64,000 nucleotides of DNA. Origin: Patescibacteria group bacterium. GTDB lineage: Bacteria; Patescibacteriota; Minisyncoccia; Phycocordibacterales; Phycocordibacteraceae. The position numbers were made by a program, and so were the translations under genes. Below the pieces are notes generated by a model. It saw only the letters and a program-made list of their open reading frames with translations. It was not told where the DNA came from and did no database searches. The stretch is from the NCBI GenBank assembly GCA_018971045.1, contig JAGWVF010000003.1, positions 42,793-106,792 on the forward strand. Direction: 5' to 3'. Positions 22,107-45,368 of this stretch are shown here, in pieces. Numbering within the stretch: position 1 is the stretch's first letter; every line of letters begins with the position of its first letter.

Positions 22107-22155
22107 AGACTTCAGTATAACTCGAGGAAACCCATTTTGTGATAGACTTCTAGTC

Positions 22156-22551: not shown

Positions 22552-22597
22552 CGGAAGATGGTTGCGTCTTTTGGCGCGTTATATCTAACCATCTCCT

Positions 22598-24838: not shown

Positions 24839-24843
24839 AAACT

Positions 24844-25866: not shown

Positions 25867-25869
25867 CAT

Positions 25870-26262
25870 ATGAAATCAACAACTATATCGATTGTGTTCG
25901 CAGGACTGCTTATTGCTGGAGCAATCTTCTACACGGGAGCAAGTAGTACACCGGGAAGCAGTGGCACACCCGTTGCCAACAATGTCAGTGTGGTGAACGG
26001 TACGCAGATCGTGGAGATAAGCGTGCGCGGCGGTTATCATCCGCAACGCAGCCAGGCTAAAGCAGGCATTCCGACTGTGCTGCGATTTGAGACCAACGGC
26101 AGCTTTGACTGCTCGTCCTCGGTCCGTATTCCAAGCCTTGGTATCGCTCAAAGTCTGCCGTCGTCGGGCAACACAGACATAAGCGCCGGCACACCGTCTG
26201 CAGGCGTTCTGCGCGGCACCTGTGGCATGGGCATGTACAGTTTTGAGATAGGCTTCAGCTAG
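25870..26262 (+). CDS. cupredoxin-like (Cupredoxin_1) copper-binding exported protein
   Basis: Signal anchor; VRGGYHP...GTCGMGMYSFEIGF matches the V-K-GGYSP...C-x-MGMY pattern of CopA-associated cupredoxin_1 proteins. Confidence 0.65.
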   Translation: MKSTTISIVFAGLLIAGAIFYTGASSTPGSSGTPVANNVSVVNGTQIVEISVRGGYHPQRSQAKAGIPTVLRFETNGSFDCSSSVRIPSLGIAQSLPSSGNTDISAGTPSAGVLRGTCGMGMYSFEIGFS

Positions 26263-26279
26263 CTTCAAAGTTATAAATC

Positions 26280-27158
26280 TTGATTATAAAAACTAAGCAC
26301 GTTGTCCCCGCTCTCTATATAAATGGTGATTGTCACGACTTGCTTAAGACGCGTGAATTTAAGGTTAGAGTATGCAATGATGCCCTCATGTACAAAGAAT
26401 TGACTCCCGGAGGCGTTCGGAAGATGTTTGGTGTCTCTGAGAACTATACGGTGGAGGCCCTTCTCACGTTCGGTACACATCCGAAAACGAAGGAGTATCC
26501 CTTCTTCGAGGAGGCCTTGCGCACGCAAGGTATCGAACCGATTTACGAAACGATTCCAAGTGTTTTTTTCGGCGACATACGGAGCATCATGACGCCGCAT
26601 GGGAGACTCTGGTTTGACGTCATCTATGGGAGCGCGTACGGGAGCGAAGTCGCACATATCGCTTCCCTACTCGGAGCAAAGGCTATCATTCATATCGGGA
26701 AAACCGGTGGCTTGCAGAAAGATCTCAAGACCGGGGACATTGTCGTTCCTTCTCGTGCGGACGCGGATGACAGCGCACCACGCATGTATGCTCGTCCAGA
26801 GACTGCGAAAGTGTTTCCGAGCGATGCTCAGCTCAGCGAAGAACTCACAGAAAACATTGGTGCGCCGATCGACCGCCGACCTATCATATCGATTCAAGCG
26901 ATGCTCGCTGAGACTCGCGAGGACGTCGTCGCATGGGAGAAAGAAGGCTACGCTGGTGTCGATCTTGAGTGCGCAACCATATTTGCTGTCGCGAATCATT
27001 TCAAGATCCCAGTCGCGGCGGCGGTCTACACCGCCGACAATCTTGCGAATGAATCGCTTGTGACCGATACGGGCTATGCTGAATCAAAAGAACATCGTCA
27101 GGAGGCAAAACGCCAGATCTATGCTGCAGCAGTAAAGACTCTTTTCGGGCGTATGTAA
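26280..27158 (+). CDS. nucleoside phosphorylase, PNP/UDP (PNP_UDP_1) family
   Basis: 292 aa; phosphorylase-fold blocks HIGKTGGL, DLECATIFAVANHFKIPVAAAVYTADN. Confidence 0.55.
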   Translation: MIIKTKHVVPALYINGDCHDLLKTREFKVRVCNDALMYKELTPGGVRKMFGVSENYTVEALLTFGTHPKTKEYPFFEEALRTQGIEPIYETIPSVFFGDIRSIMTPHGRLWFDVIYGSAYGSEVAHIASLLGAKAIIHIGKTGGLQKDLKTGDIVVPSRADADDSAPRMYARPETAKVFPSDAQLSEELTENIGAPIDRRPIISIQAMLAETREDVVAWEKEGYAGVDLECATIFAVANHFKIPVAAAVYTADNLANESLVTDTGYAESKEHRQEAKRQIYAAAVKTLFGRM

Positions 27159-27200
27159 AAGAACGAGGCCAGGAGTGTATCCTGGCCCGTTGGAGAAGGA

Positions 27201-27527
27201 TTAATTGGTAATTTCTCTCTGATCCGGACCGGAATCGGCCGGGCCGCTCTCGGCTTCGTGCTGGACGTTCGCGTTCACGTCCGTGCCCGCGTCGTCAGCC
27301 GTCTCGCCATCGAGCTGCTTCGGATCTTGGGCGGAGGTTTGCACCTGCGCACCGGAGTCGTCTGCCTGCTCCCCGTCGAGATTCTGCGGATCCTGTGCGA
27401 CCGCCTGCGCCTGTGTCGTCGGGCCGGCCTGGCTCATGCTCGCGGCATGGACGGCATAGCCCGCGGCTCCGGTGATGCCGACGATGAAGGCGGCAAGGAT
27501 CGGAAGATATTTCTTGGTTGAAAACAT
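27201..27527 (-). CDS. small secreted acidic protein with tandem 19-aa repeat
   Basis: Signal MFSTKKYLPILAAFIVGITGAAGYAVHA; repeats AQDPQNLDGEQADDSGAQV / AQDPKQLDGETADDAGTDV. Confidence 0.4.
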   Translation of the reverse strand: MFSTKKYLPILAAFIVGITGAAGYAVHAASMSQAGPTTQAQAVAQDPQNLDGEQADDSGAQVQTSAQDPKQLDGETADDAGTDVNANVQHEAESGPADSGPDQREITN

Positions 27528-27602
27528 AACGTTCGATTAGATTACTGATAATGAGGTCGCCCTCGTCAACCACTACGCAACCCATCCCAGATTCCTTACA
27601 AA

Positions 27603-28094
27603 TCAGTCCGCGCCGTCACTTGGAGCCGTGAATACGCCCTGAAGAGAGACTCGATGCGGCAAGTGCCTGTACACGCGCTGCCCAAAGTCGAAGTGGTTGA
27701 GGATGATGCCGAGCGATATGCTGAACAACACCACGACAAGCACGAGCGTGGTCGTAGCGTACGTATAGCCGCGGCGCGTGCGACGGAGGCCGCAGTATGC
27801 GACGACCGTGAAGAAGGCCGTGATACCGAGCCACACGAAGGGGATGCTCTGCGCTATATCCTGGATCGACGAACCTTGAAGCTTCGCGATGCCGTCGTTA
27901 TCAAAGAAGACGAATTCGGCAATGGCGAAGGCAATACCGCCGATGACAACTGATGCGACAGCGAGAAACCAGATCATGCCGCGGCTCACGAGAAACTTCC
28001 ATCGCGCAATGGGCACTGCGCCGCGCGCCTCAAGCTCTTTCACGAGCTCCTGTGGGAATGCGTCGCTTGTCTCCATATTAGGTGTGTTCATCAT
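27603..28094 (-). CDS. putative membrane anti-sigma factor (hypothetical)
   Basis: 163 aa; overlaps upstream sigma gene by 17 bp; cytoplasmic N-terminus then 3 TM helices; same architecture as 10030..10743. Confidence 0.4.
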   Translation of the reverse strand: MMNTPNMETSDAFPQELVKELEARGAVPIARWKFLVSRGMIWFLAVASVVIGGIAFAIAEFVFFDNDGIAKLQGSSIQDIAQSIPFVWLGITAFFTVVAYCGLRRTRRGYTYATTTLVLVVVLFSISLGIILNHFDFGQRVYRHLPHRVSLQGVFTAPSDGAD

Positions 28095-28650
28095 ACCTCT
28101 TTAGTTTTTCTTTTAGTTTCGACTTCGCCCGATTTATATAAACAGCGACCGTTCCAGACGGCAATTCCAAGATGTCCGAAATCTCATCGTAGCTCCTTTC
28201 TTCAAAGAATCGGAGGTACAGAACGTCACGGTACTTGAGATCGAGCGTTTCGAGCGCCTCGCGTACAGCTTTGGCGTTAATGGCGGTATCAACCTCGCGA
28301 GCAACGTCGAGATCGTCGGCGATCCTATCGAGCGCCTCAAGATTATCTTCGAACTTTGATGGTCGGGGACGATTCTTTTGCCTTCGGAAGTGATTGAAGG
28401 TCTCGTTGCGAGCGATGCGATACAACCAGGCGCTGAATGAAAGCGTGGAGTCGTAATCATTCAGGTGGACGTACGCCTTTATAAAAGTCTCTTGAAGAAT
28501 GTCCTTCGCTATCTCTGCATCGAGCGAACCGAGACGAACAATGTAGCGGAGAAGGCGCACATCGTATCGAACAACGAGCTGGGCGAACTCCTCGCGATTC
28601 GCGAGGGCCGCCCTTACCAGCTCAACATCCGTACGTGCGTCATCAGCCAC
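28078..28650 (-). CDS. ECF-type sigma-70 family factor (second copy)
   Basis: 190 aa; region 2 (LLRYIVRLGS...ILQETFIKAYVHL) and region 4 (RSYDEISDILELPSGTVAVYINRAKSKLKE). Confidence 0.8.
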   Translation of the reverse strand: MADDARTDVELVRAALANREEFAQLVVRYDVRLLRYIVRLGSLDAEIAKDILQETFIKAYVHLNDYDSTLSFSAWLYRIARNETFNHFRRQKNRPRPSKFEDNLEALDRIADDLDVAREVDTAINAKAVREALETLDLKYRDVLYLRFFEERSYDEISDILELPSGTVAVYINRAKSKLKEKLKRYDEHT

Positions 28651-28662
28651 CTGTCAACCATA

Positions 28663-29298
28663 TCACAGGGAAAAGAGCGACGCTTCTCCAAACAACTCGG
28701 TTCCCGAATCAGTAACGTGCATTCCGGCACCGTCCTTGCACGTATAGATTTCCCGTCCGTGCTTCTGTTTATACTCTGCTAGCCACGCGCGCTCGTCAGG
28801 CGTGTCAGCGAAATGCGGTTGGAATTCGAAATCAACAAAATCGAAACCGGTGAAATCAGTCATGCCGACTTCATTCTCGTCTTCAGAGGCCGCAATCTCG
28901 ATAGATGGCGTGCATATGATGCTTCCGGCACTCGCGCCGATGAGTACGCCACCGTTCGTGAGATGCTGTTCAAGAATCTTCTCGAGTCCGCGCTTGCGCG
29001 CACCGTCCATGAAAGTGAAGGTGTTCCCTCCAGAGAGATAGATGGCAGTATAGCTCGGGAGCGTTGCTAGCATCTCGTCGGTGAACGCGTCTGAAAGGTC
29101 GAAGTAGTCGACACCCAGCTCTGGACTGATCGCGGCATAATCGGCGATAGTAGATCGGTAATACGGACGATCGCCAATCTGTGGGCTCGAAGAAACATAC
29201 GCGACCTTTGTCCCCCGCTTGAGAATCTCTTGCGCGAGCGCTTCGCGCAGCTTCTCGTCGAGCGGGCTCATCATGCTGAGCAGGAAGATATTCTTCAT
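28663..29298 (-). CDS. peptidase S51 family (dipeptidase E / cyanophycinase-like, Asp-specific)
   Basis: YLSGGNTFTFM and GASAGSIIC (catalytic Ser) blocks; probable start MKNIFLL at 29298 (ORF track extends to 29373). Confidence 0.65.
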   Translation of the reverse strand: MKNIFLLSMMSPLDEKLREALAQEILKRGTKVAYVSSSPQIGDRPYYRSTIADYAAISPELGVDYFDLSDAFTDEMLATLPSYTAIYLSGGNTFTFMDGARKRGLEKILEQHLTNGGVLIGASAGSIICTPSIEIAASEDENEVGMTDFTGFDFVDFEFQPHFADTPDERAWLAEYKQKHGREIYTCKDGAGMHVTDSGTELFGEASLFSL

Positions 29299-29305
29299 GA
29301 TCTTC

Positions 29306-30160
29306 TTACTTACGAACAAGCTCCGTATCAAACCATTGCTCCTGAAAATGAATAGCCGCCATAATCTCACCATCCGTCATGGCCACGCCGCTTGGTACGA
29401 CGATGAGTTTGTCGTCGTCATTATCTTTCCTATGTGCAATAGCTATGCAAATACCGGACGCTTTTGCGAGCGGTTCCTGCACACCGAGATAATAAGCATC
29501 GAGCTCTTCGCCATCGGGTGCCTTGGTGTCAGGCACATAGCCGTAGTTCGCCTCATAGACGAAACCGTGCTTCGGATGTTTTGATCCAAGCGGTCGATCC
29601 ATCACCACTTCGACCTCCTTGCCGAGATAGTTATGGGCGAGTGCAAACGATCCTGACGGCTGTAGTTCAGCCTTCAATGCGAGAGCGCGCCGCATGAGGT
29701 GCTCGCCTATCTCTCCCCAGTCGAAATACTGTTTGATATCTGCCGGATTGATGAGCCGCATCTCTGTAACACCTTCGCCATCGCTAGAATCGGCATCCTC
29801 AACGAAAGGTCCGACGGGTTCGACGATGCAGACTGCGCGAACCTGCACCGAGAGGCGGTGCGGTTCTGTTACTTCTTGGTAGCCGATAATGCGCTGTTTG
29901 AGCACGCGCATGTTCGTCTCTTCGAGCACTTCCCGTACAATCGCTTCTTCTGCCGTCTCTCCCGGCTCTACCCCGCCGCCCGGCGGCGTCCAGTATCCCT
30001 TCCCTTCTGAATACACGATGACGAGCTGATCATCGACAAAGCAGAACGCGTGCACGCCGTGCGCCATCCGGTCACCAAGCTCTTCAAACGAGTCAAGATC
30101 CCGGTACACCACAGGCACCGTACCCAGCTTTCGCGTCTGCATCGTTGATCTGATTTCCAT
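29306..30160 (-). CDS. NUDIX hydrolase fused to family-I inorganic pyrophosphatase-like domain
   Basis: Nudix box GGGVEPGETAEEAIVREVLEETN in N-half; C-half has DRPLGSKHP...EANYGYVPDTKAPDGEELDAYYLG and GICIAIAHRKDNDDDKLIVV paralleling PPase DRP...NYGFIPxT..DGDPLDVLV / VIGVLxMxDEGExDxKIIAV. Confidence 0.6.
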   Translation of the reverse strand: MEIRSTMQTRKLGTVPVVYRDLDSFEELGDRMAHGVHAFCFVDDQLVIVYSEGKGYWTPPGGGVEPGETAEEAIVREVLEETNMRVLKQRIIGYQEVTEPHRLSVQVRAVCIVEPVGPFVEDADSSDGEGVTEMRLINPADIKQYFDWGEIGEHLMRRALALKAELQPSGSFALAHNYLGKEVEVVMDRPLGSKHPKHGFVYEANYGYVPDTKAPDGEELDAYYLGVQEPLAKASGICIAIAHRKDNDDDKLIVVPSGVAMTDGEIMAAIHFQEQWFDTELVRK

Positions 30161-30163
30161 ATC

Positions 30164-30748
30164 CTATTCTTTCGCCTTCAAGTATCCCTTGAATCCTTCC
30201 TCGTCTTTCACGCCGTGTCGCATGACAGCCTTGTAGAAATCGGTACTGATGACGCCGTCGCGATACCCCTTCCCGTCTCTCCACTTCTCCTTAAGACGGA
30301 GGATGACGAGACGTTGCTCGTCGGTACTCGCGTCGAGCTCGGAAGCGTCATAATCTCCGATCTCTCCTCGCTTCCCGAACCACATATCAACTTTCCATTC
30401 GCCAGAGGGCTGTACCGTGCGCACGCCGACGTAGTACGCATGAGGGAAATTGATACGGTCTTTCCGGAAATCTCTCCGCAACTCGCGATAATTATTGAAA
30501 TGCACCATCTGAATGATTGGCATTTTCGCGAGCACCGGGAGAAGATCTACGACTGCTTCAAGACTTGATTCTTTCATCCAAGCATGAATATCAATATCGG
30601 GCATAACCATAAGCCCGCTCTTCACGCTTCCGACAATTTCCGGTTCAGAGATTCTCCCGATAATCGAGAGCAGATCGAGGTCTTTCAAAATCCGCTGCGC
30701 CTCCTCTTGCAAAGATTGTGCCCTGACGATCAATTGTCCATCGGTCAT
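30164..30748 (-). CDS. nucleotidyltransferase-fold protein (pol-beta-like NTase superfamily)
   Basis: GSVKSGLMVMPDIDIH = GS-x9-D-x-D NTase signature near N-terminus; 194 aa. Confidence 0.45.
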   Translation of the reverse strand: MTDGQLIVRAQSLQEEAQRILKDLDLLSIIGRISEPEIVGSVKSGLMVMPDIDIHAWMKESSLEAVVDLLPVLAKMPIIQMVHFNNYRELRRDFRKDRINFPHAYYVGVRTVQPSGEWKVDMWFGKRGEIGDYDASELDASTDEQRLVILRLKEKWRDGKGYRDGVISTDFYKAVMRHGVKDEEGFKGYLKAKE

Positions 30749-31227
30749 TCAAGTATTCTACTCAAAATAAGCCTGGTCGTCTCTTCTGGTGTTTGCTTCG
30801 TAGTATCTATAGTCTCTCCAAAACTCGGGTTATGGATGCCTATATTGTAGTGATGCTTGATCCTTTCTTTTTCCCAATCATCGAGTTCCCGTGCACCTCT
30901 GTTAGTCAGAGCTTTCTCAAGCTGCGGCGCGAACGTGAACACTCGAATATCGACATTCAAATCTCTCAGATTTTCCATTAGGAAATCATAGTTCTTTTGT
31001 GAGAGCGGATATGGAACAATGACATTAAGGTCTCTTTTTACGAAATTCGTAATGATCGATATCGCATTCTCAAGATTGAGCGGGATGCTCTGCTCGAGCG
31101 GCATCCAACCAACCATCTCACGTAACGCATCAATTTCGACCACGGCGGTATGTGGCAATTCTTTGAGGAGCAACTTTGCAACCGTGCTCTTCCCGGCGTT
31201 GATTGAGCCATTGAGGAAAATGATCAT
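30745..31227 (-). CDS. P-loop NTPase/kinase (AAA_33/zeta-toxin-like small kinase)
   Basis: Walker A GSINAGKST at residues 7-15; 160 aa; 4-bp overlaps with both neighbours. Confidence 0.5.
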   Translation of the reverse strand: MIIFLNGSINAGKSTVAKLLLKELPHTAVVEIDALREMVGWMPLEQSIPLNLENAISIITNFVKRDLNVIVPYPLSQKNYDFLMENLRDLNVDIRVFTFAPQLEKALTNRGARELDDWEKERIKHHYNIGIHNPSFGETIDTTKQTPEETTRLILSRILE

Positions 31228-32279
31228 GGCGAGAAAGTAGCATATATTTTCCGTGCTTTTCCGTCGATGCGAATACGTCCGCCGTACGGTAATGATATCT
31301 GCGGACTGGTATGGCCTATGTCGAGATTCTGTATCATGGGGATTGTCGGGTTGTATGCGCGGACAGCCTTGAGGATGGTCTCACGCTGTTCTGCACGATA
31401 GGCGGCCTGCCAAGCTTCGTCGTGCTCGTTGCCGAACTCCCACGCTTTGGGTCTTCCCACAAGTACACCCTTAACGCGCGCAAGAATACCTCGTTCCCCA
31501 AGCGCTCGGTATACGCGAAAGACATAGTCTGCTGGCGGCATCTCTTCCGACGTCTCGGTAAAAAGGATTATGTTCTCGAACTCATCAAGCGACGGGGTAG
31601 TCGTACCGTGTCGGAGCATCTCATCGATGGATTCGAGACATCCTCCCCAACTTATACCGTCAGCATCCTTTCCTCCGTCCCAGTACCACCCCTCGTTCGG
31701 CAGAAATGTCTCGAACTTCTCAAGATTCGCGGGATCGTTCCAATCGAGTCCCATATCCGAGAACGTCGGGCTCGATTCGAGCTCGTATTCTCCTGATTCA
31801 AAGAGGGCGATATTCAAGTATTTCAGCGTGAAGTCGTCAATCTTCCCCTCCATCGCGAATTGAGTGAAGAGCGCGCCACCGTAGTACGACGCGATTCCCT
31901 GTTGCCAGAGGAAGTTCTCGAGATGCGTGTTGTCGCTGTAGCCGAACACCGGCTTCGGATTGTGCGCAAATGGTTCAGGCGGAAGATTCTTGATGTAGGT
32001 CACCTGGTCGTCACCGCCAAGCGAGGTGATGATCCCTTTGATCGTCGAATCCTCAAACGCGGCGACTAGGTCGGCCGCGCGCTCCTTGCCAGACGCGCCG
32101 AGCTTGGCTGTTGTTGGAAATGCAACTGGCTCGAGGCCAAAATCTTCTCGCAGACGCTTAAGCCCGAGTTCATACACGTGAGGGAATCTGCCGGGCGCAG
32201 CGAACGAGGGCGAAAGGATGGCAACCCGATCACCTCGTTTCAGCTTGGGCGGTGTAACCAGCTTTTTCATGCAATTCAT
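31224..32279 (-). CDS. S66-family LD-carboxypeptidase (MccF-like)
   Basis: 351 aa; RGDRVAILSPS N-terminal block, nucleophile motif FGYSDNTHL, two-domain size typical of S66. Confidence 0.7.
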   Translation of the reverse strand: MNCMKKLVTPPKLKRGDRVAILSPSFAAPGRFPHVYELGLKRLREDFGLEPVAFPTTAKLGASGKERAADLVAAFEDSTIKGIITSLGGDDQVTYIKNLPPEPFAHNPKPVFGYSDNTHLENFLWQQGIASYYGGALFTQFAMEGKIDDFTLKYLNIALFESGEYELESSPTFSDMGLDWNDPANLEKFETFLPNEGWYWDGGKDADGISWGGCLESIDEMLRHGTTTPSLDEFENIILFTETSEEMPPADYVFRVYRALGERGILARVKGVLVGRPKAWEFGNEHDEAWQAAYRAEQRETILKAVRAYNPTIPMIQNLDIGHTSPQISLPYGGRIRIDGKARKIYATFSP

Positions 32280-32386
32280 TATACTTCGTATCGAAGATTT
32301 CGTACCATACTGCCCCTAGGGCCGACCAGTACCGGTTCTTGGTGTCACAATCGCACTGCGCTGGTAGCATGAGATCTCGCAACCTA

Positions 32387-32977
32387 CTACCGACGGGCGA
32401 GAAATGGGTTTGGCTCATCAAAAGTGAGATGTATGACAGTGTCTTTGGAAAGATTGTCAGGATGAATACCGTAAACCATCTCATATATCTCACCTGCTCC
32501 ACAGAATTTCGCACTTTCCCAATCAAAACCTAGTTTCTCGGCGGCGGATCTCACCTGTTCTTCGTCAGGTCCTTCGATTTCAACATATGGCTTTAAATGC
32601 GGCCACGTATCGATGTCGACCTCCACGCCATCGAGTTCCCATCTCTCTCGAAGAGTCTCCGAATAGTTCGTCATCCGCGCTCCAAGCGCTTTCATAAATT
32701 CAGCACCGCGTTCCATATCTGAGATTGTAAATTCAACTTCTTTTTGTTGGTCTATGGTCGCCTCGGGCGGGATCTTCTTATACGCCATAGTCACCTTATC
32801 GCCTTCGTCCCGTACTCGCACCCATTCCCAAAAATCTCGACCGAGACTTTGCAAATCGAAATTCACGCGGCGCTGCTTGTATTCGTTGCGTAAAAGATTC
32901 GCGCCAAGCGCTTTAAGCTTATTTCTGAACGCGTCCTTATCGACATCTAGAAATGTCGCCTCGTATTCCGTCTGCAT
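32387..32977 (-). CDS. CYTH-domain protein (class IV adenylyl cyclase / triphosphate tunnel metalloenzyme-like)
   Basis: 196 aa; N-terminal EYEATFLDVD (ExE tunnel motif), alternating charged beta-strands typical of CYTH. Confidence 0.5.
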   Translation of the reverse strand: MQTEYEATFLDVDKDAFRNKLKALGANLLRNEYKQRRVNFDLQSLGRDFWEWVRVRDEGDKVTMAYKKIPPEATIDQQKEVEFTISDMERGAEFMKALGARMTNYSETLRERWELDGVEVDIDTWPHLKPYVEIEGPDEEQVRSAAEKLGFDWESAKFCGAGEIYEMVYGIHPDNLSKDTVIHLTFDEPNPFLARR

Positions 32978-33077
32978 GGTGCAATAGTATCATTTCATAC
33001 TGTTAGGGATGGGTCGGCCTTCTAGTATTTGCGGCCTTTGGCCGCTTTCGTAGCATAAATCGGTATAGAATAGGATT

Positions 33078-33989
33078 ATGAACATCTTCCGAAGTCAGCT
33101 CGTCACATATCTGCGCACACTCCTTCCTGCTATGGGTGAAGCGAACGTGTCGTTCCCACCGCAAGGCATGAGTAGCCATGTGTTTTTCTTAACCTCCGGC
33201 GATACGGCGTACGCGGTGAAATACGGTCCTGATGCAACCAAAGACGTGCCCACCCTCACGCTTATTCACGAGTGCGGTACCCGGGTGCCGGTGCCCGAGG
33301 TGGTAACCGAGTTCGTTTTCGAAAGCGTACCCGTTTTGGTTATGACATGCATTCAATTTCCGCTACTTGATACGGTGGCAGTGACCGAGCTTCCGCTCTA
33401 TATTCCGAGCATGGTATCCGTGATGCGCAAGCTCCACACGATTACGAATCCGGTGCCACGCGTACTCTCCGCGGCAAAAGATCTTCCCTCGTGGCAAGAG
33501 TATCTGCTCGCGCAATTCGATGGCCGGACGATCGATTGGACTGAAGTACTCGACCGCCCAACGCTCGATCGCGCGCTCGTCGCCGAAGCGCTTGCACGGC
33601 ATCACGCCACACTCTCCACCTTCGAGCTCAAGCTGCCCGAGTATGCCCTGCTCCACACAGACTTCAATCAGCGCAACTTGTTTGTCAATTCAACAACAAG
33701 ATCTATCAGCGGTGTCATCGACTGGGAAGATGCCGTGTTCGGCGATCCGATATATGATTTTTCCCGCATACGCATGCTCCTTTGGCACTTCGATCTTCCT
33801 GATTCGGTCGTGCGGACATACGACGAGCTCATGCGCTATACCGATGCCGAGCACAGGCGCGAGCGTCTCTACTGGACCGGACGAGTCATCCAATATCTCG
33901 CGTGGTATTCCGAGGAGGATACGCCGTTTAATACCGCACGCATTGCATTGCATCAAAAATACTTGCACACATTGCTGAATAACCCATAA
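33078..33989 (+). CDS. aminoglycoside/choline-kinase-type phosphotransferase (APH family)
   Basis: Brenner motif HTDFNQRN and VIDWEDAVFGDPIYD (DxE...GDP) block. Confidence 0.65.
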   Translation: MNIFRSQLVTYLRTLLPAMGEANVSFPPQGMSSHVFFLTSGDTAYAVKYGPDATKDVPTLTLIHECGTRVPVPEVVTEFVFESVPVLVMTCIQFPLLDTVAVTELPLYIPSMVSVMRKLHTITNPVPRVLSAAKDLPSWQEYLLAQFDGRTIDWTEVLDRPTLDRALVAEALARHHATLSTFELKLPEYALLHTDFNQRNLFVNSTTRSISGVIDWEDAVFGDPIYDFSRIRMLLWHFDLPDSVVRTYDELMRYTDAEHRRERLYWTGRVIQYLAWYSEEDTPFNTARIALHQKYLHTLLNNP

Positions 33990-34011
33990 AACACATGATT
34001 ATCGTCAGTAG

Positions 34012-34371
34012 TCAGCCAACTTTCGCAATCCGTATCCCCACGACGCCGTACTTCTGCTCGTCTTCCTTTGAATAGAACTGTCGTATCTGATTGAGCAGAA
34101 ATTCTCGGCTTTCACCACCGAAAAGAGAAGGATCGAGGTCTGCAAAAAGCTCTTTGAACGATTGATGCCGAAGAAGTCCTACGACCTTCGCGCGTACCTT
34201 ATTCTCGGGATGCTTGCTCTCGCTGAATTCAATCTCGTCGCCGAGCGCGATCTGCTGGCGCTTTTCGTCGTAGAGGCGCGACTCAACGACCTTCGTGCCA
34301 GAAGCAATCTGGTTGAACGGCTCTGTCGATAATTTCATCTCGTGTTGCATACGTTTTTTATCAGACTCCAT
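34012..34371 (-). CDS. ASCH-domain protein
   Basis: 119 aa; EPFNQIASGTKVVESR...GDEIEF pattern of ASCH/PUA-like fold. Confidence 0.5.
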   Translation of the reverse strand: MESDKKRMQHEMKLSTEPFNQIASGTKVVESRLYDEKRQQIALGDEIEFSESKHPENKVRAKVVGLLRHQSFKELFADLDPSLFGGESREFLLNQIRQFYSKEDEQKYGVVGIRIAKVG

Positions 34372-34700
34372 GGTGGTTGCAGGGGGCCGACATATACTTT
34401 AGGACCCCCGAATTGATCTGCAGTAATATCAATAACGGTTTTGTCGGCGACTAAGAACGTATGATCATACTCTCCATACTTCCCTTGGGTAACTTCTCCT
34501 CCCAATCTCTTTTGGAGATACAAAGATGCAAGACCGCAGTTCCCATCTGGGAAGATATCTTTTGCTTTGCTTACAAAACGCGCAGTATCACCAACGTCTG
34601 TATAATTTCGATATAGCTCAATGAGCAAGTCTTGGTTGATCGATCCAGCCTCGAACTGTCTTCGAGCCTCAAACGCCGCCTTTTTATTGGAAACGCTCAT
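34335..34700 (-). CDS. hypothetical protein
   Basis: 121-aa ORF, codon usage consistent with neighbours, 37-bp overlap with ASCH gene; no recognisable motif. Confidence 0.3.
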   Translation of the reverse strand: MSVSNKKAAFEARRQFEAGSINQDLLIELYRNYTDVGDTARFVSKAKDIFPDGNCGLASLYLQKRLGGEVTQGKYGEYDHTFLVADKTVIDITADQFGGPKVYVGPLQPPWSLIKNVCNTR

Positions 34701-34788
34701 AAAATGATGGCCTCATCGGAAACCCGATGAGGCCATTTTAACATACCGCTCGCGTTTATCTTTTCAAGACCCTTAGAGATTCTGATTT

Positions 34789-35451
34789 TTGCTATACTTA
34801 CAGGACTACATGAAAAGAGTATATTTCATACGTCACGGAGAAAGTGAAGGGAACGCGGGACCCTTACGACGAGGGGCTGACGCTCCCTTGACTGAGCGGG
34901 GCAGAAATCAAGTATTGTCAGTGGTGAGCCGCCTTGCGACACTTCCCGTCGAGACTATTATCATCAGTAGTACCGATGTTCGTGCAAAAGAGACCGCAGA
35001 AATCATTCAGGATGCGTTACATAAAAACGTGACTGTATCCGAGCTATTTGTTGAGCGGCGGCGGCCTTCGGAGGTTTTTGGGCAACTTAAGAATTCTCCC
35101 ATATCGCGTCGTGTGGGTGATGCCATTAGAATAAATTTTCATATACCCGGATATCGCTTTTCCGATGAGGAAAACTTCGACGATCTAAAAAATCGAGCAC
35201 ACAAAGCGCTCACATTTCTATCTGAACAATCAGAATCTTCTTTAATTTGTGTAACGCATGGGTTTTTCATACGCATCCTCATCGCGTATGCACTACACAG
35301 CGAAACTTTGACGAGCGAAATTTGTGAACATCTCATACGCGCTCTAAATATGGAAAATGCGGGGATAACGATCCTTGATTACAACGAGGAGGACACTTCA
35401 TGGAAGCTTTTGACTTGGAATGATCACTCGCATTTATCAGAATCCGTTTAG
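34789..35451 (+). CDS. histidine phosphatase (phosphoglycerate mutase-like) family protein
   Basis: RHG catalytic motif VYFIRHGESEGN near N-terminus; CVTHGFFIR second His block. Confidence 0.75.
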   Translation: MLYLQDYMKRVYFIRHGESEGNAGPLRRGADAPLTERGRNQVLSVVSRLATLPVETIIISSTDVRAKETAEIIQDALHKNVTVSELFVERRRPSEVFGQLKNSPISRRVGDAIRINFHIPGYRFSDEENFDDLKNRAHKALTFLSEQSESSLICVTHGFFIRILIAYALHSETLTSEICEHLIRALNMENAGITILDYNEEDTSWKLLTWNDHSHLSESV

Positions 35452-35596
35452 TAATTAGGAACCTTGATCCCTTACGCTCGCCAATCGTTAAACAGATATT
35501 TGAAAATATCGGCAACGACAGGTGGAGTGGCCGCCAGGTATATGGGTGGCCTGGAGGCGCAACATACGCCGCGACTTTTGCGCACGTGATGCCGAG

Positions 35597-35661
35597 CGGT
35601 ACCGTACTCGTCCCGACGGGGGACGGTATTGGTTCCTGGCGTCACAACCGTGTTGCGGGGG
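35597..35661 (+). repeat. intergenic hairpin repeat, copy R1 (family of three)
   Basis: cggtaccgtactcgtcccgacgggggacggtattggttcctggcgtcacaaccgtgttgcggggg; 63/65 identical to R2; imperfect palindrome GGTACCGTAC...GTCCC/GGGAC...GGTA; lies between convergent genes. Confidence 0.7.
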
Positions 35662-35696
35662 TCATAGACGAATCGGACTTTCTACGACCTAGATGC

Positions 35697-36257
35697 TCAA
35701 GTTCGATTCCTGTCCCCATTTTCGCGTATCATTTCTTCATATTCATGAATAGATGATAGTCCCATCTCTGCTCGCCGCGTGTCGATCTCTCGCGGATCTT
35801 CAAAGGGAAAGAATGATATGGATCCATCCTCGTTTATCGCGCTGTATTGCGTCCCGTACCGTTGCGGCCTCCCTTCCCGCACCAGCAATTTGTCGGTGAT
35901 AAATGCCGCATGAGACGTGTCAACGTCCTCTGTCTCAGAGGCAAGGATGGCATTTGCAACTTGATCCATAAATCCAGGATCGTCGGAATGCAAGACGAGC
36001 GCAATGAATGCCCGGTAGGCATCCTCACCAACAAGTCGTATCTTTGGAAATTCGATTTCAAATATCCTGCGCGCCTCTTCTGTGCGTGCATGAATCGCGT
36101 TATTTATATCTTCAAGACTTAGCGTCCCTGCTTTATATTGTTTTAAGTCCTCCTGATCCTCCGCGAGCAACTGGAGAAGATGCTCAGATAATCCAAAGTC
36201 TCTCATGTTTCGATTCTCGTGCTCGTTATTTTGATATTGAGCTTTGGTACTCAGCAA
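35697..36257 (-). CDS. hypothetical protein
   Basis: 186 aa, acidic; overlaps upstream NTase gene by 32 bp; no family recognised. Confidence 0.35.
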   Translation of the reverse strand: MLSTKAQYQNNEHENRNMRDFGLSEHLLQLLAEDQEDLKQYKAGTLSLEDINNAIHARTEEARRIFEIEFPKIRLVGEDAYRAFIALVLHSDDPGFMDQVANAILASETEDVDTSHAAFITDKLLVREGRPQRYGTQYSAINEDGSISFFPFEDPREIDTRRAEMGLSSIHEYEEMIRENGDRNRT

Positions 36258-36639
36258 TAAGTTCTATGTCGCGGAAGTCTTTCGGTCTGGCGAGTATGCG
36301 CTTTATTTCGACGAGTTTCTCGAGCGGCAGAAATGGTATGCCGTCAATCATCTGTGAATCGGCAATAAGCGCGGCGGGGTCAGGATGATGGCCGCCGTAC
36401 CAGAAGTCCCTATAGACCTCCACTTCTCCACGACTAAGCCGTTCCCGTATCCGTCCTTCTATCTCGATTTTCTCAAATGTCCAACCCGCAACGCGAAGCT
36501 CATCGAACACGCGCGGCGACACGATCAGGTCTATGTCGCCGATTTCTCGAATACCGAGCGCTCCAAGAATTCCACTTCCAAACACAAGATACTCTCCGTC
36601 TGGCAGATTGAGCTCCCTCACTTTTTCAGACACGTTCAT
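36226..36639 (-). CDS. nucleotidyltransferase-fold protein (minimal NTase/MNT-like)
   Basis: 137 aa; GSGILGALGIREIGDIDLIV = GS...D-x-D NTase motif. Confidence 0.5.
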   Translation of the reverse strand: MNVSEKVRELNLPDGEYLVFGSGILGALGIREIGDIDLIVSPRVFDELRVAGWTFEKIEIEGRIRERLSRGEVEVYRDFWYGGHHPDPAALIADSQMIDGIPFLPLEKLVEIKRILARPKDFRDIELIAEYQSSISK

Positions 36640-36756
36640 ATGATGAATGTATCATCAAAACAAAGGAAAAGCTCGCCACTTTTTTATAGTGCGCAATAAC
36701 CGCTTGACTAATCGGATACTTTCGGATAGTATCGGATATATAGTCAATATACACAT

Positions 36757-37803
36757 ATGGAAGATCGCCTCTCAAAACGCATCAAGCTCACCCCGAGCAT
36801 TCTGAAGAAAATCGCCTTCATCGACGAGTTCAAAGGCCGCTGGCGCGGCACGGCTGAGATGAGCCCGAAGATACTCGACCGTCTGCGCGCCTCGGTCATC
36901 ATCACCTCGACCGGATCCTCAACCCGCATCGAAGGTTCGGCTCTAAGCGACGAAGAAGTCGCGCGGCTCCTACGAGGGTTAAAATCGAAGCCGCCGGTCG
37001 GTCGTGACGAAGAAGAGGTTGCCGGGTATGCCGATCTTCTTGGTCGGATATTCGATCACTATTCTGACCTTTCACTATCCGAGAGCCGCATTCTCCAGTT
37101 CCATGAGATTCTCCTCCACTACGCCAAGAAGGACGCGCTCCACAAGGGCGCGTACAAGACGACCGACAATGTCGTCGTAATGCGCGGCGAGAAGGGCGAG
37201 GAGATTGTCCTCTTCCGTCCCACTCCACCGTACCTCGTGAAGAAGGAGATGGATGACTCCATTGCATGGTTTGATGACGCGCACGACCAGCATCCGCTTC
37301 TCGCCATCGCCAACTTCATCTTCGAGTTTCTCGTGATCCACCCTTTCCACGACGGGAATGGGCGACTCTCGCGTGCGCTCACGAATCTGTTCCTCTTGCG
37401 CGCCGGATACGGCTATACTCCCTCTGTTTCGCTCGACGAGATTATCGAAGAGCGCAAGACTGATTATTATCTCGCCCTCCGCCAGACACAGAAACATCAC
37501 AAGACAGACAACGAGGACATTACGCCCTGGACTGAGTTCTTGCTCGATGCGCTCCTTGAGCAGTCGATGCGCGCCGAGAAGCTCCTCGGAGAGAAACATC
37601 CGGAGATGCTTCTCTCGTCCAAGCAACTCGCTGTTTTTGAGCTCTTCGCAGGTGGCGAGGAGCTCTCGGTGCGCGAGATATACGATCGCCTCGATGGCGC
37701 TATCGCCGTGCCGACCATCAAGAAGACTCTTCTGCGTCTTATGAGCCATCTGCTTATCATGCGTCTCGGCCAAGGTCGCGCAACACGGTATCGTAAGATA
37801 TAA
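36757..37803 (+). CDS. Fic/DOC family protein (AMPylator-type)
   Basis: Canonical Fic motif HPFHDGNGRLSRAL; 348 aa with C-terminal winged-helix-like segment. Confidence 0.85.
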   Translation: MEDRLSKRIKLTPSILKKIAFIDEFKGRWRGTAEMSPKILDRLRASVIITSTGSSTRIEGSALSDEEVARLLRGLKSKPPVGRDEEEVAGYADLLGRIFDHYSDLSLSESRILQFHEILLHYAKKDALHKGAYKTTDNVVVMRGEKGEEIVLFRPTPPYLVKKEMDDSIAWFDDAHDQHPLLAIANFIFEFLVIHPFHDGNGRLSRALTNLFLLRAGYGYTPSVSLDEIIEERKTDYYLALRQTQKHHKTDNEDITPWTEFLLDALLEQSMRAEKLLGEKHPEMLLSSKQLAVFELFAGGEELSVREIYDRLDGAIAVPTIKKTLLRLMSHLLIMRLGQGRATRYRKI

Positions 37804-37805
37804 AT

Positions 37806-38282
37806 ATGAACTTAAATCTGACCAAAGAAGAGTTCGTCGAATTGCTCCAGGTCGTGTATTTAGGTACCTATGTCCGCAACGCGGTACGCGAGCAAGAAGG
37901 AGAATACGACCACGCACGAGATGAGGCGCTGGGAAATAGGTTATATCGCATTGCTCTCGAACTCGGAGTACCGGGGATTGAACAGGATGAAAAGTACAAG
38001 TATGTCGGACCATCAAACGCTCTCGAGAAGGAATGGCACGATATCATCGAAGCGTATGAGGAGGATGAATTCTGGCACGAGCTTGAGGTTCTCCTTGGGA
38101 AACGCGACTTCTATCGAACGATGACACGAGAGGATTCCGAGACTCTGGAGAAAACCGGCTGGCTGCCTGAAAGAATTCACGACCTTTATGAGAAATATGC
38201 CGATGAATTCGAGAAATTCGGAATTGAGCGTCTCGAGATTAATAAAAATGCTCCGATCTCAGACGTGCGGGACTTGCTGTAG
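37806..38282 (+). CDS. hypothetical acidic protein (co-transcribed with Fic)
   Basis: 158 aa, starts 3 nt after Fic stop; Glu/Asp-rich; followed by strong terminator. Confidence 0.35.
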   Translation: MNLNLTKEEFVELLQVVYLGTYVRNAVREQEGEYDHARDEALGNRLYRIALELGVPGIEQDEKYKYVGPSNALEKEWHDIIEAYEEDEFWHELEVLLGKRDFYRTMTREDSETLEKTGWLPERIHDLYEKYADEFEKFGIERLEINKNAPISDVRDLL

Positions 38283-38290
38283 TATTTAAA

Positions 38291-38330
38291 CACGAAAGCC
38301 GCGGCATACGTCGCGGCTTTCGTGTTCTTT
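38291..38330 (+). terminator. Rho-independent terminator
   Basis: cacgaaagccgcg-gcatacgt-cgcggctttcgtg 13-bp GC-rich stem followed by TTCTTT, 9 nt after stop of 37806..38282. Confidence 0.6.
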
Positions 38331-38347
38331 CGGAGCCAGATGCCTGT

Positions 38348-38463
38348 CGGTACCGTACTCGTCCCGACGAGGGACGGTATTGGTTCCTAGCGTCACAACC
38401 GTGTTGCCCGAGACGATACCGTACCAGACCATACAAGGTATATAAGGGTTCCTTGGTGACACT
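38348..38463 (+). repeat. intergenic hairpin repeat, copy R2 plus a degenerate tandem second unit
   Basis: 38348..38408 near-identical to R1; 38412..38463 (gataccgtaccagacc...gggttccttggtgacactcc) is a diverged second copy of the same unit. Confidence 0.65.
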
Positions 38464-38639
38464 CCTCCCTCTTTATTTTATGGGGGTCGGTATGGCTCGG
38501 CTTTCAAACATTTGCAACGTCTTCGCTTGCTTTAAGCGGCCGAATAAGGGCGGCAGTACCGTACCCAGCAAATACATAGGACTACCCTATGTAGACCTCG
38601 ATACTACAATCGACTCAAGGATAGATTTCTATACCTTCA

Positions 38640-39236
38640 TTAACGCTTGGAAGCAATAATATCAAATACGTGCCAAAACTTATCCGGGCCAGTTGCCGTG
38701 GGACGAATGCCTTTCTTTTCGAGAAGCTTGTGTATCACATAAGAAGAAAAAAGTGACTTGACTTGCTCTCTTGTATGGAAGCTCATATCTGTGCGCTTTG
38801 ACCATTCGTCCTCTGGACCAAATAACTGACCCACAAACACACCATCTTCTTTTAGGGAAGAGGTCATACTCGCAAATACATCTGCAAAAGTCTCGGGGTT
38901 ATTAAATGGTAACGAGTATCGCGCGTTTATCAAAATAAAATGATTGGGAGGAAATGGAAAATTATCGAACTTGGTTATTTCAAGATCAATAGGATCCCTG
39001 TCTTGAAGCAAATATTGCTTAACGTCTGGATTTGAATCCACAGCTGTAACTGTGTATCCAAGACTTGAAAGATAATAGGCTTCATTCAACGCTCCGGCTC
39101 CCAAATCGAGTACCGGACCGTCTCCTTGAACATACAATAACGCCTCGACCAATAATTTGCTTGGTTGATTATTTGCGGTTTTTGCGAGATATTCTTTCCA
39201 CACCACTACTACAATTCTATCCGAAAATCGGAGCAA
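38640..39236 (-). CDS. class I SAM-dependent methyltransferase (TehB-like small MTase)
   Basis: Motif I VLDLGAGALNEAYYLSSLGYTVTAVD; 198 aa. Confidence 0.65.
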   Translation of the reverse strand: MLRFSDRIVVVVWKEYLAKTANNQPSKLLVEALLYVQGDGPVLDLGAGALNEAYYLSSLGYTVTAVDSNPDVKQYLLQDRDPIDLEITKFDNFPFPPNHFILINARYSLPFNNPETFADVFASMTSSLKEDGVFVGQLFGPEDEWSKRTDMSFHTREQVKSLFSSYVIHKLLEKKGIRPTATGPDKFWHVFDIIASKR

Positions 39237-39295
39237 AAAGAAGCCCTCGCAACAAGCGAGGGCAATTACCTAAGACTCTCTGAAGAAATGTGTGT

Positions 39296-39730
39296 TCAGT
39301 TGTTCGTCACGGATGTCGGTCTTGAGTCAAGTTCATCCGGCGACCACCACGCACAGGATGACTGGGAGCAGCAATCGGCATTGAGATTTCCGAAGCGCTT
39401 CACATTCATCGCCGGATCGGGATTCGGCACATGATGCAAGAACTGGCCGAAATTTTCCTTGCAGAACGCCTCGTATTCGCGAGTGTGCAGGATATGGGCA
39501 TGCCATACCTCGTCACCATCAAGCGGCGGCAGAACGTACAGGTTGCGGTTCGCGCTGATGTAGGCCAGGTATTCCCGATATTCAGCGAGTGCCGCACCGA
39601 TACGCTCTTGCGACCAGTCTGGGTGGTCTTTCGCAACACGGACCGCCACAAAAGAAAGATCGGCGGACATGATGGCAGCTGCAGAACTTCTGGCGCTACT
39701 GATAGACGCCAATGAGATTTCGCTTTTCAT
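39296..39730 (-). CDS. hypothetical protein
   Basis: 144 aa; His/Cys/Trp-containing C-terminal half (WHAHILHTREYEAFC...CCSQSSCAWW); no family recognised. Confidence 0.35.
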   Translation of the reverse strand: MKSEISLASISSARSSAAAIMSADLSFVAVRVAKDHPDWSQERIGAALAEYREYLAYISANRNLYVLPPLDGDEVWHAHILHTREYEAFCKENFGQFLHHVPNPDPAMNVKRFGNLNADCCSQSSCAWWSPDELDSRPTSVTNN

Positions 39731-39923
39731 AACAAAGATCCTTTTCTAGCTAGAGTTGAAGAGAACGGTCTGGAGCACGTCTACTCCAGAGACAACAATA
39801 GCACAGAAGTTACCTATGAATCAACTGTACGGAAATCATTTTGCGCATAATTGCAACACGGAACTGAGCCGAATACGAGAATAGGAATCGAACTGGATAT
39901 ATGTTGTAAATGCTACGTAGCAG

Positions 39924-39957
39924 AAAAAGCGCTCTACGTATGTAGGCGCTTTTTCTG
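39924..39957 (-). terminator. bidirectional Rho-independent terminator downstream of tRNA(CAT)
   Basis: aaaaagcgc-tctacgtatgtag-gcgcttttt: 9-bp stem with A/T tracts on both sides. Confidence 0.55.
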
Positions 39958-40026
39958 GTGATTATGGGGACCGGTACAGTACCCGTTTTGACGGGCGTCG
40001 GTACTGGTTCCTGGCGTCACAACCGT
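39958..40026 (+). repeat. intergenic hairpin repeat, copy R3 (diverged), overlapping the 3' end of tRNA(CAT)
   Basis: ggggaccggtacagtacccgttttgacgggcgtcggtactggttcctggcgtcacaaccgtgttgcggggg; 3' 30 nt identical to R1; hairpin arm shows compensatory changes relative to R1/R2. Confidence 0.65.
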
Positions 40027-40088
40027 GTTGCGGGGGCCGGAATCGAACCGGCGTCTGGAGGTTATGAGCCTCCCGAGGTACCTCTCCT
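40018..40088 (-). tRNA. tRNA-Met(CAU), initiator-like (fMet) features
   Basis: Manual cloverleaf: acceptor AGCGGGG/CCCCGCA with A1xA72 mismatch, U8 A9, D-stem GAGG/CCTC with A11:U24, anticodon stem GGAGG/CCTCC, loop CUCAUAA, 4-nt variable, T-arm GCCGG-TTCGATT-CCGGC, discriminator A; CCA not encoded. Confidence 0.65.
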
Positions 40089-40471
40089 CTACCCCGCTTT
40101 ATACGCCGCGGATTTCCGCAGCTTCTTCATTATACACAGCGGCACCCTTGCGGCAACCTGAGACACACGGAGCGGCGACTGCAGTCGCCGCTCTTTTGTC
40201 ACGCCTCTTCAAGTTTCCTCCTTGATTTCTCCTCTTCCTGAATGGCTTTGTTCAACCGCTTCAGCGAATCGCAGAAGGGCGAGACACACAAGAGGATGAC
40301 GAATCCTAGAGCGATCACGAATGGCGCGAAACAAATCGCCATGACTAAACCGATATACTTGAGAGCCTTCACTACCGTCTCCTTTCAGGCGAATAGACAT
40401 GCGCTGTCATCAACGCATACGCGTACAGTACAATGGAGTCGCGAGCGCGTCAAAGGCGCGGCGGCTCGAGA

Positions 40472-42835: not shown

Positions 42836-45358
<2,523 letters not shown>

Positions 45359-45368
<10 letters not shown>

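Follow-up and report, generated by a model that had tools for sequence, protein, structure and literature searches.

A probable decayed tandem array of integrative elements of the large serine recombinase type at the 3′ end of an initiator-like tRNA-Met gene in Patescibacteria

The window analyzed here, a stretch of 64,000 nt from a Patescibacteria group bacterium (positions 42,793 to 106,792 of contig JAGWVF010000003.1, assembly GCA_018971045.1), contains a patch of lower GC DNA which ends at the 3′ end of an initiator-like tRNA-Met(CAT) gene. The question raised by this locus is how such DNA came to be placed there, in a lineage, the Candidate Phyla Radiation (CPR), whose genomes are tiny and whose gene exchange is poorly understood. 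An initial annotation, made from the sequence alone, had read positions 26270-40088 as an accessory island formed by serial integrations at the tRNA. Serial integration is supported by the variable DNA found at this place in relatives, by co-oriented att-like repeats, by a link to genes of large serine recombinases (LSRs), and by the relic of one such gene. The region is probably a decayed tandem array of integrative elements of the LSR type, inserted one after the other at the tRNA-Met 3′ end. The feature in the window is in itself an ordinary decayed island, and the added value is comparative, that is, a candidate hotspot, common to the clade, at the Patescibacteria initiator tRNA, with a defined 82-nt att-like unit and a putative cognate LSR family, as judged from sequence. 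No description of such a hotspot, unit, or LSR family was found in the literature searched.

The 21-mer CCCCGCAACACGGTTGTGACG, composed of the last 9 nt of the tRNA and 12 nt of its trailer, recurs in the window at 35640-35660 without mismatches and at 38391-38411 with three mismatches, and 100 shuffles gave no such match. Both recurrences named by the initial annotation were found (R1 and R2, respectively), but the unit proved to be longer, that is, ~82-88 nt by alignment and repeat search, with R1 and the tRNA end identical over 32 nt, and a fourth, degenerate copy (R0) exists. All four copies are co-oriented with the tRNA and confined to the 7.7 kb located 3′ of it, which they divide into segments A, B, and C; the repeat-delimited array spans 32302-40045 (table 1). 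The tRNA part of copy 0 corresponds to the T-arm and the acceptor 3′ strand. R0, the farthest from the tRNA, is the most degenerate copy and sits in the 107-nt spacer between the CYTH and S66 genes. Left of 32.3 kb, no further copies were found by nhmmer --max or by a search for the core with up to two mismatches.

The repeat is also found in other genomes (loci of relatives are labeled here with L-numbers). In GTDB relatives, blastn and nhmmer located the unit 3′ of tRNA-Met, often several times per locus (e.g., L014, L017, L018, L025, L011, L005, and L047). When JGI metagenome contigs were scanned for exact matches to the core pattern, 91 stretches were obtained, and there were no matches of the core in IMG/VR. 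Over all data, 103 loci carry the repeat, 37 of them with at least two copies. The copies within any one of the 103 loci share the same strand, and in the loci anchored on GatA, a set chosen independently of the repeat, copies are located downstream of the tRNA and nowhere else. The inter-repeat segments, 51 in number, are between 2 nt and 9 kb long (median 1.5 kb).

The alignment of 94 distinct copies showed an invariant block, CAACACGGTTGTGACGCCAGGAACCAGTACCG, followed by a variable stretch of ~20 nt and then by GTAC[A/T]GTACCG. The left arms form discrete classes, that is, the tRNA type, CGATTATGGACCC, CAGTACCGACACGGG, ATATTCTGGTCC, CAATTCCTGCCC, and CGTCTATGACCCC, the last being that of R1. 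RNAalifold on the same copies gave five invariant pairs with a covariation term of -0.01, which indicates that the sequence is conserved and not a structure; a structured RNA or an attC-like hairpin was ruled out on this lack of covariation. The best dyad has its center at the ACG immediately 3′ of the tRNA; its symmetry is imperfect, its 16-nt arms being 53-61% complementary (25% by chance), and the similarity between sites extends for ~60 nt on one side. The absence of RNA covariation fits a DNA site bound by protein, and the pattern of the repeat would suit such a site with the crossover in the core. In array-free relatives (L006, L007, L013, L020, and L031), a plain terminator is found directly after ...CCCCGCAAC, and therefore the ~60-nt right arm is derived from the element and not from the native trailer.

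The surroundings of these sites show further small features. Over the ~200 nt that follow the window tRNA, the identity with L011 and L047 is 83-85%, and the upstream arm of R1 is homologous to distal copies in L011 and L025. Each of these two tracts contains a T-arm-like motif (AGTTCGATTCC), at 39870-39897 in the conserved 200-nt module common to L011 and L047 and at 35697-35724 in the R1 left arm, which the distal copies in L011 and L025 have as well; the two are mutually inverted and match at 79% over 28 nt. In L010 (2436-2500) and L018 (12174-12260), the tRNA is followed by another, related trailer family (GTAGTGCGGCCTG..CAGACCGCCCGGCATCAAAA..), which scores weakly against the repeat model (16-18 bits) and may represent the att arm of elements from a sister family. 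Beyond the terminator, L007 (~5085-5140), L025 (~12250-12310), and L017 (~5070-5130) hold an inverted and interrupted copy of the tRNA 3′ end (GTTGCGGGGG...TCCGGAATCGAA). The first full repeat of L025 and L017 is located ~190-260 nt downstream of the tRNA.

The synteny of the locus was compared with the closest GatA relatives in GTDB, which are metagenome-assembled genomes (MAGs) of Patescibacteria (Kaiserbacteria/Paceibacterota) with an identity of at most 73-75%; the window itself comes from a genome of the Kaiserbacteria/Paceibacteria-like kind. Most GatA relatives keep the order gatC-gatA-orf197-tRNA-Met (72 nt), and in the window orf197, gatA, gatC, and ligA are located right of the tRNA. 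On the opposite side, the conserved distal block of the relatives consists of a 2-hydroxyacid dehydrogenase (window 7168-8169), enolase, PPDK, and a homologue of 2262-3548. The distance from the tRNA to this block is 0.7 kb in L006, ~1.8 kb in L011, L005, and L167, 3-10 kb in L090, L143, L133, L047, and L099, and 31.9 kb in the window. In the somewhat closer loci L114, L136, L165, and L135, the distal flank is an HlyD/HlyD/MFS/MarR block homologous to window 17146-21042, and in L114 and L165 the conserved flank begins at the homologue of 19753-21042. The cargo 3′ of the tRNA is almost never common to different relatives.

According to the initial annotation, the island starts at 26270, after the copper locus, and relatives might show copA to cupredoxin followed directly by tRNA-Met and gatCA. 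Such an order was not seen in any relative compared, nor were copA-DsbD-cupredoxin genes found beside the tRNA, and for this reason the copper locus belongs to the variable region and is not its boundary. As a conserved flank it was ruled out, since this role is taken by the dehydrogenase/enolase/PPDK or the HlyD/MFS/MarR block.

The base composition leads to the same limits on the left. The GC content of 26270-40088 is 50.9%, and that of the flanks 57-58%; the median GC3 of genes is 0.577 inside the flagged interval versus 0.675 outside (Mann-Whitney p=5e-5). The tetranucleotide distance from the core is approximately doubled (28-34 vs. 13-18) from ~22.5 kb to 40.5 kb and falls abruptly at the tRNA. 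The lower GC that had been reported for the island (~42-52%) was thereby confirmed, but the host stands at 57-58% and not at ~62%. The right edge, placed from the beginning at the 3′ end of the tRNA, is sharp and real, and the left edge at 26270 is arbitrary; the tetranucleotide deviation begins at ~22.5 kb, within the copper locus, and 26.3-30 kb deviates mildly (52-57% GC). The end of the HlyD/HlyD/MFS/MarR flank at 21042 agrees with a compositional onset at ~21-22.5 kb. By composition and closer-relative synteny, the variable region extends from ~21-22.5 kb to 40.0 kb, and from 8.2 to 40.0 kb if more distant relatives are used.

It is highly improbable that the region is no island at all, that is, DNA inherited vertically with gene-specific GC bias, in which the repeats are similar to repetitive extragenic palindromes or miniature inverted-repeat transposable elements, or are duplicated tRNA trailers serving as RNA elements. 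The mild deviation of 26.3-30 kb would fit this explanation, as would the conservation of some genes beyond that of GatA (the NUDIX homologue in L010 is 82% identical) and a trailer which, with the tRNA included, folds somewhat better than shuffles (z=-2.6). Against it stand the confinement of the repeats to the 3′ side of tRNA-Met and to its orientation, both in the window and in the 103 loci, the lack of covariation, a gene content that differs in nearly every relative, and the significant GC3 and tetranucleotide shifts with their abrupt edge at the tRNA. This explanation is already largely refuted.

The enzyme that may act on the sites was suggested by the cargo. In repeat-bearing loci, the 430 open reading frames (ORFs) located downstream of the tRNA form 297 clusters; among them are an ABC-2 transporter pair, Ham1+HIT+beta-lactamase, an AIR-synthase-like protein, a Cap15-like protein, a two-component system, and a complete type I restriction-modification system. 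The two largest clusters absent from conserved flanks are Fic and a protein of 445-462 aa, which a Pfam scan following the clustering identified as an LSR with Resolvase, Recombinase, and Zn_ribbon_recom domains; for instance, the LSR at L153:4237-5625 matches PF00239, PF07508, and PF13408. A hidden Markov model (HMM) of the family matched in L091, L097, L105, L121, L124, L131, L134, L139, L149, L151, L153, and L163. In GatA-anchored loci with an LSR (L016, L043, L064, L009, and L069), the gene is found only downstream of the tRNA, and in repeat-bearing loci, which have at least 16 LSR ORFs, these are antisense to the repeats in 16 cases out of 16. In L149, a 2.6-kb unit of orf401 and an LSR is placed between two repeats and looks like a minimal element. 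The LSRs are mutually 75-97% identical (median 86%), the GatA of repeat-bearing hosts has a median of 73%, and the family is 24-27% identical to phage serine integrases.

One LSR-bearing element beside tRNA-Met (L121, 2337-10101) contains a complete type I restriction-modification system, which consists of a MerR-HsdM fusion, HsdS, HsdR, and a YgjP-like peptidase. A Patescibacteria MAG with a genomic island holding an entire restriction-modification system of type I has been reported (PMC12455944).

No integrase or recombinase had been visible to the initial annotation, which proposed a tblastn search for a degraded one. This search revealed the relic of an LSR gene at 35463-35549, 59-69% identical to 10 LSRs over 29 residues (E ~5e-9). 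The translated piece, LDPLRSPIVKQIFENIGNDRWSGRQVYGW, aligns to positions 197-225 of the LSR-family HMM (E=1e-12). It is located 40 nt from R1 and antisense to the tRNA, as in intact elements. The relic covers the start of the Recombinase domain only, without the N-terminal catalytic part and the C-terminal half, and tblastn at E<=10 gave no other LSR relic in the window. A recombinase reduced to 29 residues bears out the view that the island is old or decayed.

The assembly of this part was examined in Logan contigs. Those with identical GatA stop at window ~40007, inside the repeat. An independent contig of 4403 nt (SRR32006837) corresponds to window ~35632-40034, with the order DUF6624-orf137-Fic-orf158-R2-methyltransferase-orf144, and ends at both 32-nt exact repeats. 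The contiguity of A, R2, and B is confirmed by this contig. Short-read assemblies fragment here because of the 32-nt exact repeats.

The proposed course of events is as follows. The DNA 3′ of the initiator-type tRNA-Met would be a hotspot for site-specific integration, to which each incoming element brings an att site made of a variable left arm, the invariant core CAACACGGTTGTG, and the ~60-nt conserved right arm. The core overlaps the final bases of the tRNA; at this end, recombination would insert the element and restore the tRNA. Later arrivals would insert proximally to the tRNA and displace the earlier ones outward, so that every element would be marked by a single co-oriented repeat (copy 0, R2, R1, and R0). 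Most likely, the recombinase is the clade-specific LSR, whose gene in intact elements is antisense to the tRNA. In the window, the LSR genes would have been deleted except for the 29-codon relic beside R1, and the cargo would have remained, that is, Fic, the methyltransferase, APH, CYTH, phosphatases, the S66/NUDIX/S51/ECF operon, and probably the copper genes.

Several points weigh against this course. The 64-kb window contains no intact recombinase, so that no claim of present mobility can be made. As a rule, LSRs recombine only attP with attB, sites with little common sequence; co-oriented sites alike over ~60-80 nt, and insertion beside an attL-like site, constitute a non-textbook LSR pattern. 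The LSR of this locus may be permissive as Ccr is, or homologous recombination may contribute. The dyad has its center on a base rather than between two, and its symmetry is modest. An LSR is present in one of the 51 inter-repeat segments (L149), so that, if LSR elements built the arrays, most segments are decayed or were mobilized in trans. The independent contigs end at the 32-nt exact repeat and support A-R2-B only, not the junctions at R1 and the tRNA. Finally, with relatives as distant as GatA identities of <=75%, ordinary rearrangement may account for some of the 32-kb difference.

Other enzymes and a phage origin were considered. A tyrosine integrase was rejected, as a single E. coli XerD probe, an approximate query of limited sensitivity, gave no match in the 12,422 ORFs of all loci, and Phage_integrase appeared in no Pfam scan of the window or of sampled elements. 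Such single-sequence probes are insensitive, as is shown by the LSR family, for which a gamma-delta resolvase probe likewise gave no match. A prophage was rejected on the lack of Pfam matches to phage structural or packaging proteins in the window and sampled elements and of the core in IMG/VR.

The most recurrent cargo is Fic, with homologues in 13-16 other repeat-bearing loci (e.g., L154 856-2212, L105 5760-7033, L120 7850-9057, and L127 88-1355; also L098, L169, L116, and L167). All are antisense to the tRNA and, where a distal repeat is present, the Fic start codon is located 76-141 nt from it. In most of these loci (L098, L105, L116, L120, L127, and L169), this repeat has a left arm of the ATATTCTGG type, and there the Fic proteins are 44-70% identical to that of the window; the window Fic is not adjacent to a repeat of this type. 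In L154, Fic alone occupies a 1.2-kb segment between two repeats, and in L132, which also has an orf137 homologue, CYTH alone forms such a segment.

Single genes placed tightly between intact repeats bring integrons to mind. The integrase-free segments of 0.7-3 kb would then be gene cassettes with one 82-nt site each, excised and then inserted at the tRNA-proximal site in trans by a recombinase whose gene is located at another place in the genome or on a rare element with an LSR, and the array would be a working platform and not a graveyard. This is unlikely, though 50 of the 51 inter-repeat segments are without a recombinase and many consist of one gene, Fic keeps its orientation, its distance, and mostly its ATATTCTGG-type neighbor in spite of its divergence, and the core does not vary among hosts with GatA differences of 25-45%. 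The XerD probe and Pfam detected no IntI-like tyrosine recombinase near any array, the repeats have neither the conserved structure of attC nor covariation, the cassettes would be of mixed orientation with several of them multi-gene, and the LSR relic inside one window segment indicates the decay of a once autonomous element. A version for the whole clade is possible, if doubtful, in which the initiator tRNA-Met of Paceibacteria/Kaiserbacteria anchors an integron-like capture platform with an LSR in place of IntI and cassettes moved in trans; if true, genome-reduced bacteria would have a dedicated and safe locus for swapping accessory and defense genes.

Shuffling by homologous recombination, with the repeats as homology anchors for transformation and RecA exchange and mostly without a site-specific recombinase, is quite improbable. 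Common tracts that could serve it do exist (the tRNA with ~200 nt in the window, L011, and L047, and the 32-nt exact repeats), a type IV pilus cluster is encoded nearby at 45-57 kb, and the tolerance of alike sites on both sides would be accounted for. It leaves unexplained, however, the distinct left arms joined precisely at the core CAACACGGTTGTG and the presence of one LSR family in fixed orientation at the site.

Returning to the serial insertion of LSR-type elements, the segments of the window differ in a way that bears on their order. The GC content climbs with distance from the tRNA, with 45.8% in segment A, 48.7% in C, 50.9% in B, 53.1% in D, 55.9% at 21-27 kb, and 57-58% in the host. 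Segment A is probably the youngest, and 21043-27159, in which repeats are not recognizable, would be the oldest part of the variable region. Homologues of segment D genes, with 65-82% identity, are found directly after the tRNA or a repeat in L165, L120, L140, L115, and L010. In the first three of these loci they include S66, S51, CPT, and NUDIX, which in the window are placed after R0; this order is what a later insertion of segments C, B, and A between the tRNA and the operon would give. L140 also shows the repeat followed by S66, and there the repeat is the tRNA copy. The NUDIX homologue of L010 (82%) is more conserved than GatA. An orf472 homologue is found within the array in L114, L164, and L010.

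Gene identities in the window were taken from Pfam scans (table 1). Most of the accessory genes listed in the initial annotation hold by Pfam, with the exception of a supposed nucleotidyltransferase pair, which consists in fact of DUF6624 and orf137, the latter with a sub-threshold NTP_transf_5 match (E=0.008).

Table 1. Features of the variable region and of its tRNA anchor in the 64,000-nt window, listed from the tRNA leftward (gene strands as + or - where given)
Feature	Position	Strand	Content and support
Initiator-like tRNA-Met(CAT)	40027-40098	minus	72 nt, no encoded CCA; ARAGORN; Rfam RF00005, 58.9 bits
Att-like copy 0	39965-40045	minus	Last 19 nt of tRNA, core CAACACGGTTGTG, right arm; nhmmer 76 bits
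Terminator-like GC hairpin	39921-39958		A/T runs on both sides; read from sequence and fold; kept in L011 and L047
Segment A, tRNA-proximal	38421-39964		orf144 (39296-39730, -), small S-adenosylmethionine (SAM) methyltransferase (38640-39236, -); Pfam, Logan annotation
R2	38340-38420	minus	Left arm CGGTATCGTCTCGGGCAAC; repeat search, nhmmer 65-70 bits
Segment B	35670-38339		orf158 (37806-38282, +), Fic (36757-37803, +), orf137 (36226-36639, -), DUF6624 (35697-36257, -)
R1	35589-35669	minus	Left arm CGTCTATGACCCCCGCAAC; 32 nt exact with tRNA end
LSR gene relic	35463-35549	plus	LDPLRSPIVKQIFENIGNDRWSGRQVYGW; not an intact ORF; tblastn, hmmsearch
Segment C	32354-35588		His_Phos_1 (34789-35451, +), YunG-like ORF (34335-34700, -), ASCH (34012-34371, -), APH (33078-33989, +), CYTH (32387-32977, -)
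R0, degenerate, right arm only	32302-32353	minus	nhmmer E=6e-6 (window alone), E=1e-3 (1.3 Mb)
Segment D, operon, probably older	27160-32301	minus	S66 LD-carboxypeptidase (31224-32279), CPT-like kinase (30745-31227), orf194 (30164-30748), NUDIX+PPase (29306-30160), S51 peptidase (28663-29373), ECF sigma (28078-28650), membrane ORF (27603-28094), orf108 (27201-27527)
Part without recognizable repeats	21043-27159		PNP_UDP (26280-27158), cupredoxin (25870-26262), HMA-DsbD_2 (24844-25866), CopA (22598-24838), orf472 (21114-22532, -)

The anchor of the array is the tRNA-Met(CAT) gene. The initial call of a minus-strand, initiator-like tRNA was upheld by ARAGORN, Rfam, and the features of the stems. 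The label is justified by the A1xA72 mismatch, A11:U24, G30:C40, and G31:C39, as opposed to the other tRNA(CAT) of the relatives, which is of the elongator type with a fully paired acceptor stem and C11:G24. Position 29:41 is A:U in the window, which leaves two of the three canonical G:C pairs of the anticodon stem, and the L007 orthologue has the canonical C1xA72. By sequence criteria, the window tRNA can be classed as initiator-like, of the bacterial type.

In many relatives, the initiator tRNA-Met orthologues are split at the anticodon loop by an insert of ~250-290 nt and are missed by ARAGORN (L005, L008, L009, L014, L015, L016, L023, L024, L053, and L066). The insert of L005 (12604-12856, in a tRNA at 12572-12956) matches the group I introns (Rfam RF00028, 73.1 bits, E=1e-18) and is identified as one of them, whereas the window tRNA-Met is intron-free.

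The closest functional analogue of the locus may be the composite island of the staphylococcal cassette chromosome (SCC/SCCmec). There, the LSRs CcrAB/CcrC insert at the rlmH 3′ end and give composite arrays with direct repeats of ~15-18 nt, and pseudo-SCC units without recombinase genes are thought to be mobilized in trans. The two have in common an LSR, the 3′ end of a conserved gene as target, tandem units, and elements without a recombinase; they differ in the tRNA-end target, the ~80-nt repeats, and the single LSR found here, and in the uncultured CPR hosts, known from sequence alone. Sedentary chromosomal integrons and clusters of attC sites lacking integron-integrases (CALINs) resemble it in their short, mostly single-gene segments, lineage-specific similar repeats, and proximal insertion. 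In contrast to these, no IntI was detected here, structure of the attC type is missing, gene orientation is mixed, and the association is with a serine recombinase.

Tandem arrays of integrative elements at tRNA genes are a well-known phenomenon (PMC7192596). Classical tRNA islands have tyrosine integrases and a crossover within the tRNA (PMC4383910). The locus shares with tRNA arrays of the Islander/TIGER type the intact tRNA at one end, the displaced 3′-end fragments as direct repeats of a common site, the variable cargo, the atypical composition, and the sporadic presence among relatives. In contrast to them, the association here is with an LSR, the core is located at or just past the tRNA 3′ end, and ~60 nt of the repeat are element-derived trailer and not tRNA sequence. 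In the tRNA islands of Prochlorococcus, newcomers push older elements deeper into the island and partial tRNAs and fragmented integrases are scattered; cargo-carrying elements, the tycheposons, are common, and a minority of them use LSRs (10.1101/2020.12.28.424599). Likenesses to tycheposons are the streamlined genome, islands beside tRNAs, and the proposed displacement of older elements by newcomers. The differences are that the hosts are Patescibacteria, that a single tRNA (initiator Met) is seen as the site, that replication or primase modules and capsid genes were not seen, and that the segments are short (median 1.5 kb) and mostly integrase-free. A survey reporting genomic islands of Patescibacteria has, by a term search of its main text, no mention of tRNAs, integrases, or recombinases (PMC12455944).

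For the CPR, the locus is a candidate mechanism defined at the sequence level, with an att core at the initiator tRNA 3′ end, an LSR family, and arrays of diverse cargo. Type I restriction-modification genes, a Cap15-like protein, Fic, transporters, and resistance-type enzymes are among the cargo of the ~100 environmental loci. Horizontal transfer in this group would become testable, and the locus could yield a new serine integrase with its att pair.

Three observations concern the neighborhood right of the tRNA. The first is orf197 (40472-41065, minus), located between gatA and the tRNA and kept in 72 of the 80 GatA-anchored Patescibacteria loci; it has no Pfam match even at E<=5 and sits where gatB is expected in a gatCAB operon. 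The second is a sharper low-GC islet (57466-60200, 36.6% GC, GC3 ~0.30-0.33) following a tRNA-Ser(GCT) (57377-57465, +), which begins 44 nt after this tRNA with a restriction endonuclease of the MvaI/BcnI family (57509-58210) and contains a 621-aa fusion of LexA DNA-binding, S24 peptidase, and N4/N6 DNA methyltransferase domains (58207-60072, -). Repeats of the tRNA-Ser 3′ end that might bound this restriction-modification islet were looked for, and none was found at its far edge. The third is a large type IV pilus/pseudopilin cluster on the conserved side of tRNA-Met (44856-56810), with PilM, several N_methyl pilin paralogues, a prepilin peptidase, T2SSE/T2SSF, and a response regulator; the cluster is syntenic in relatives, and the number of pilin paralogues differs among them.

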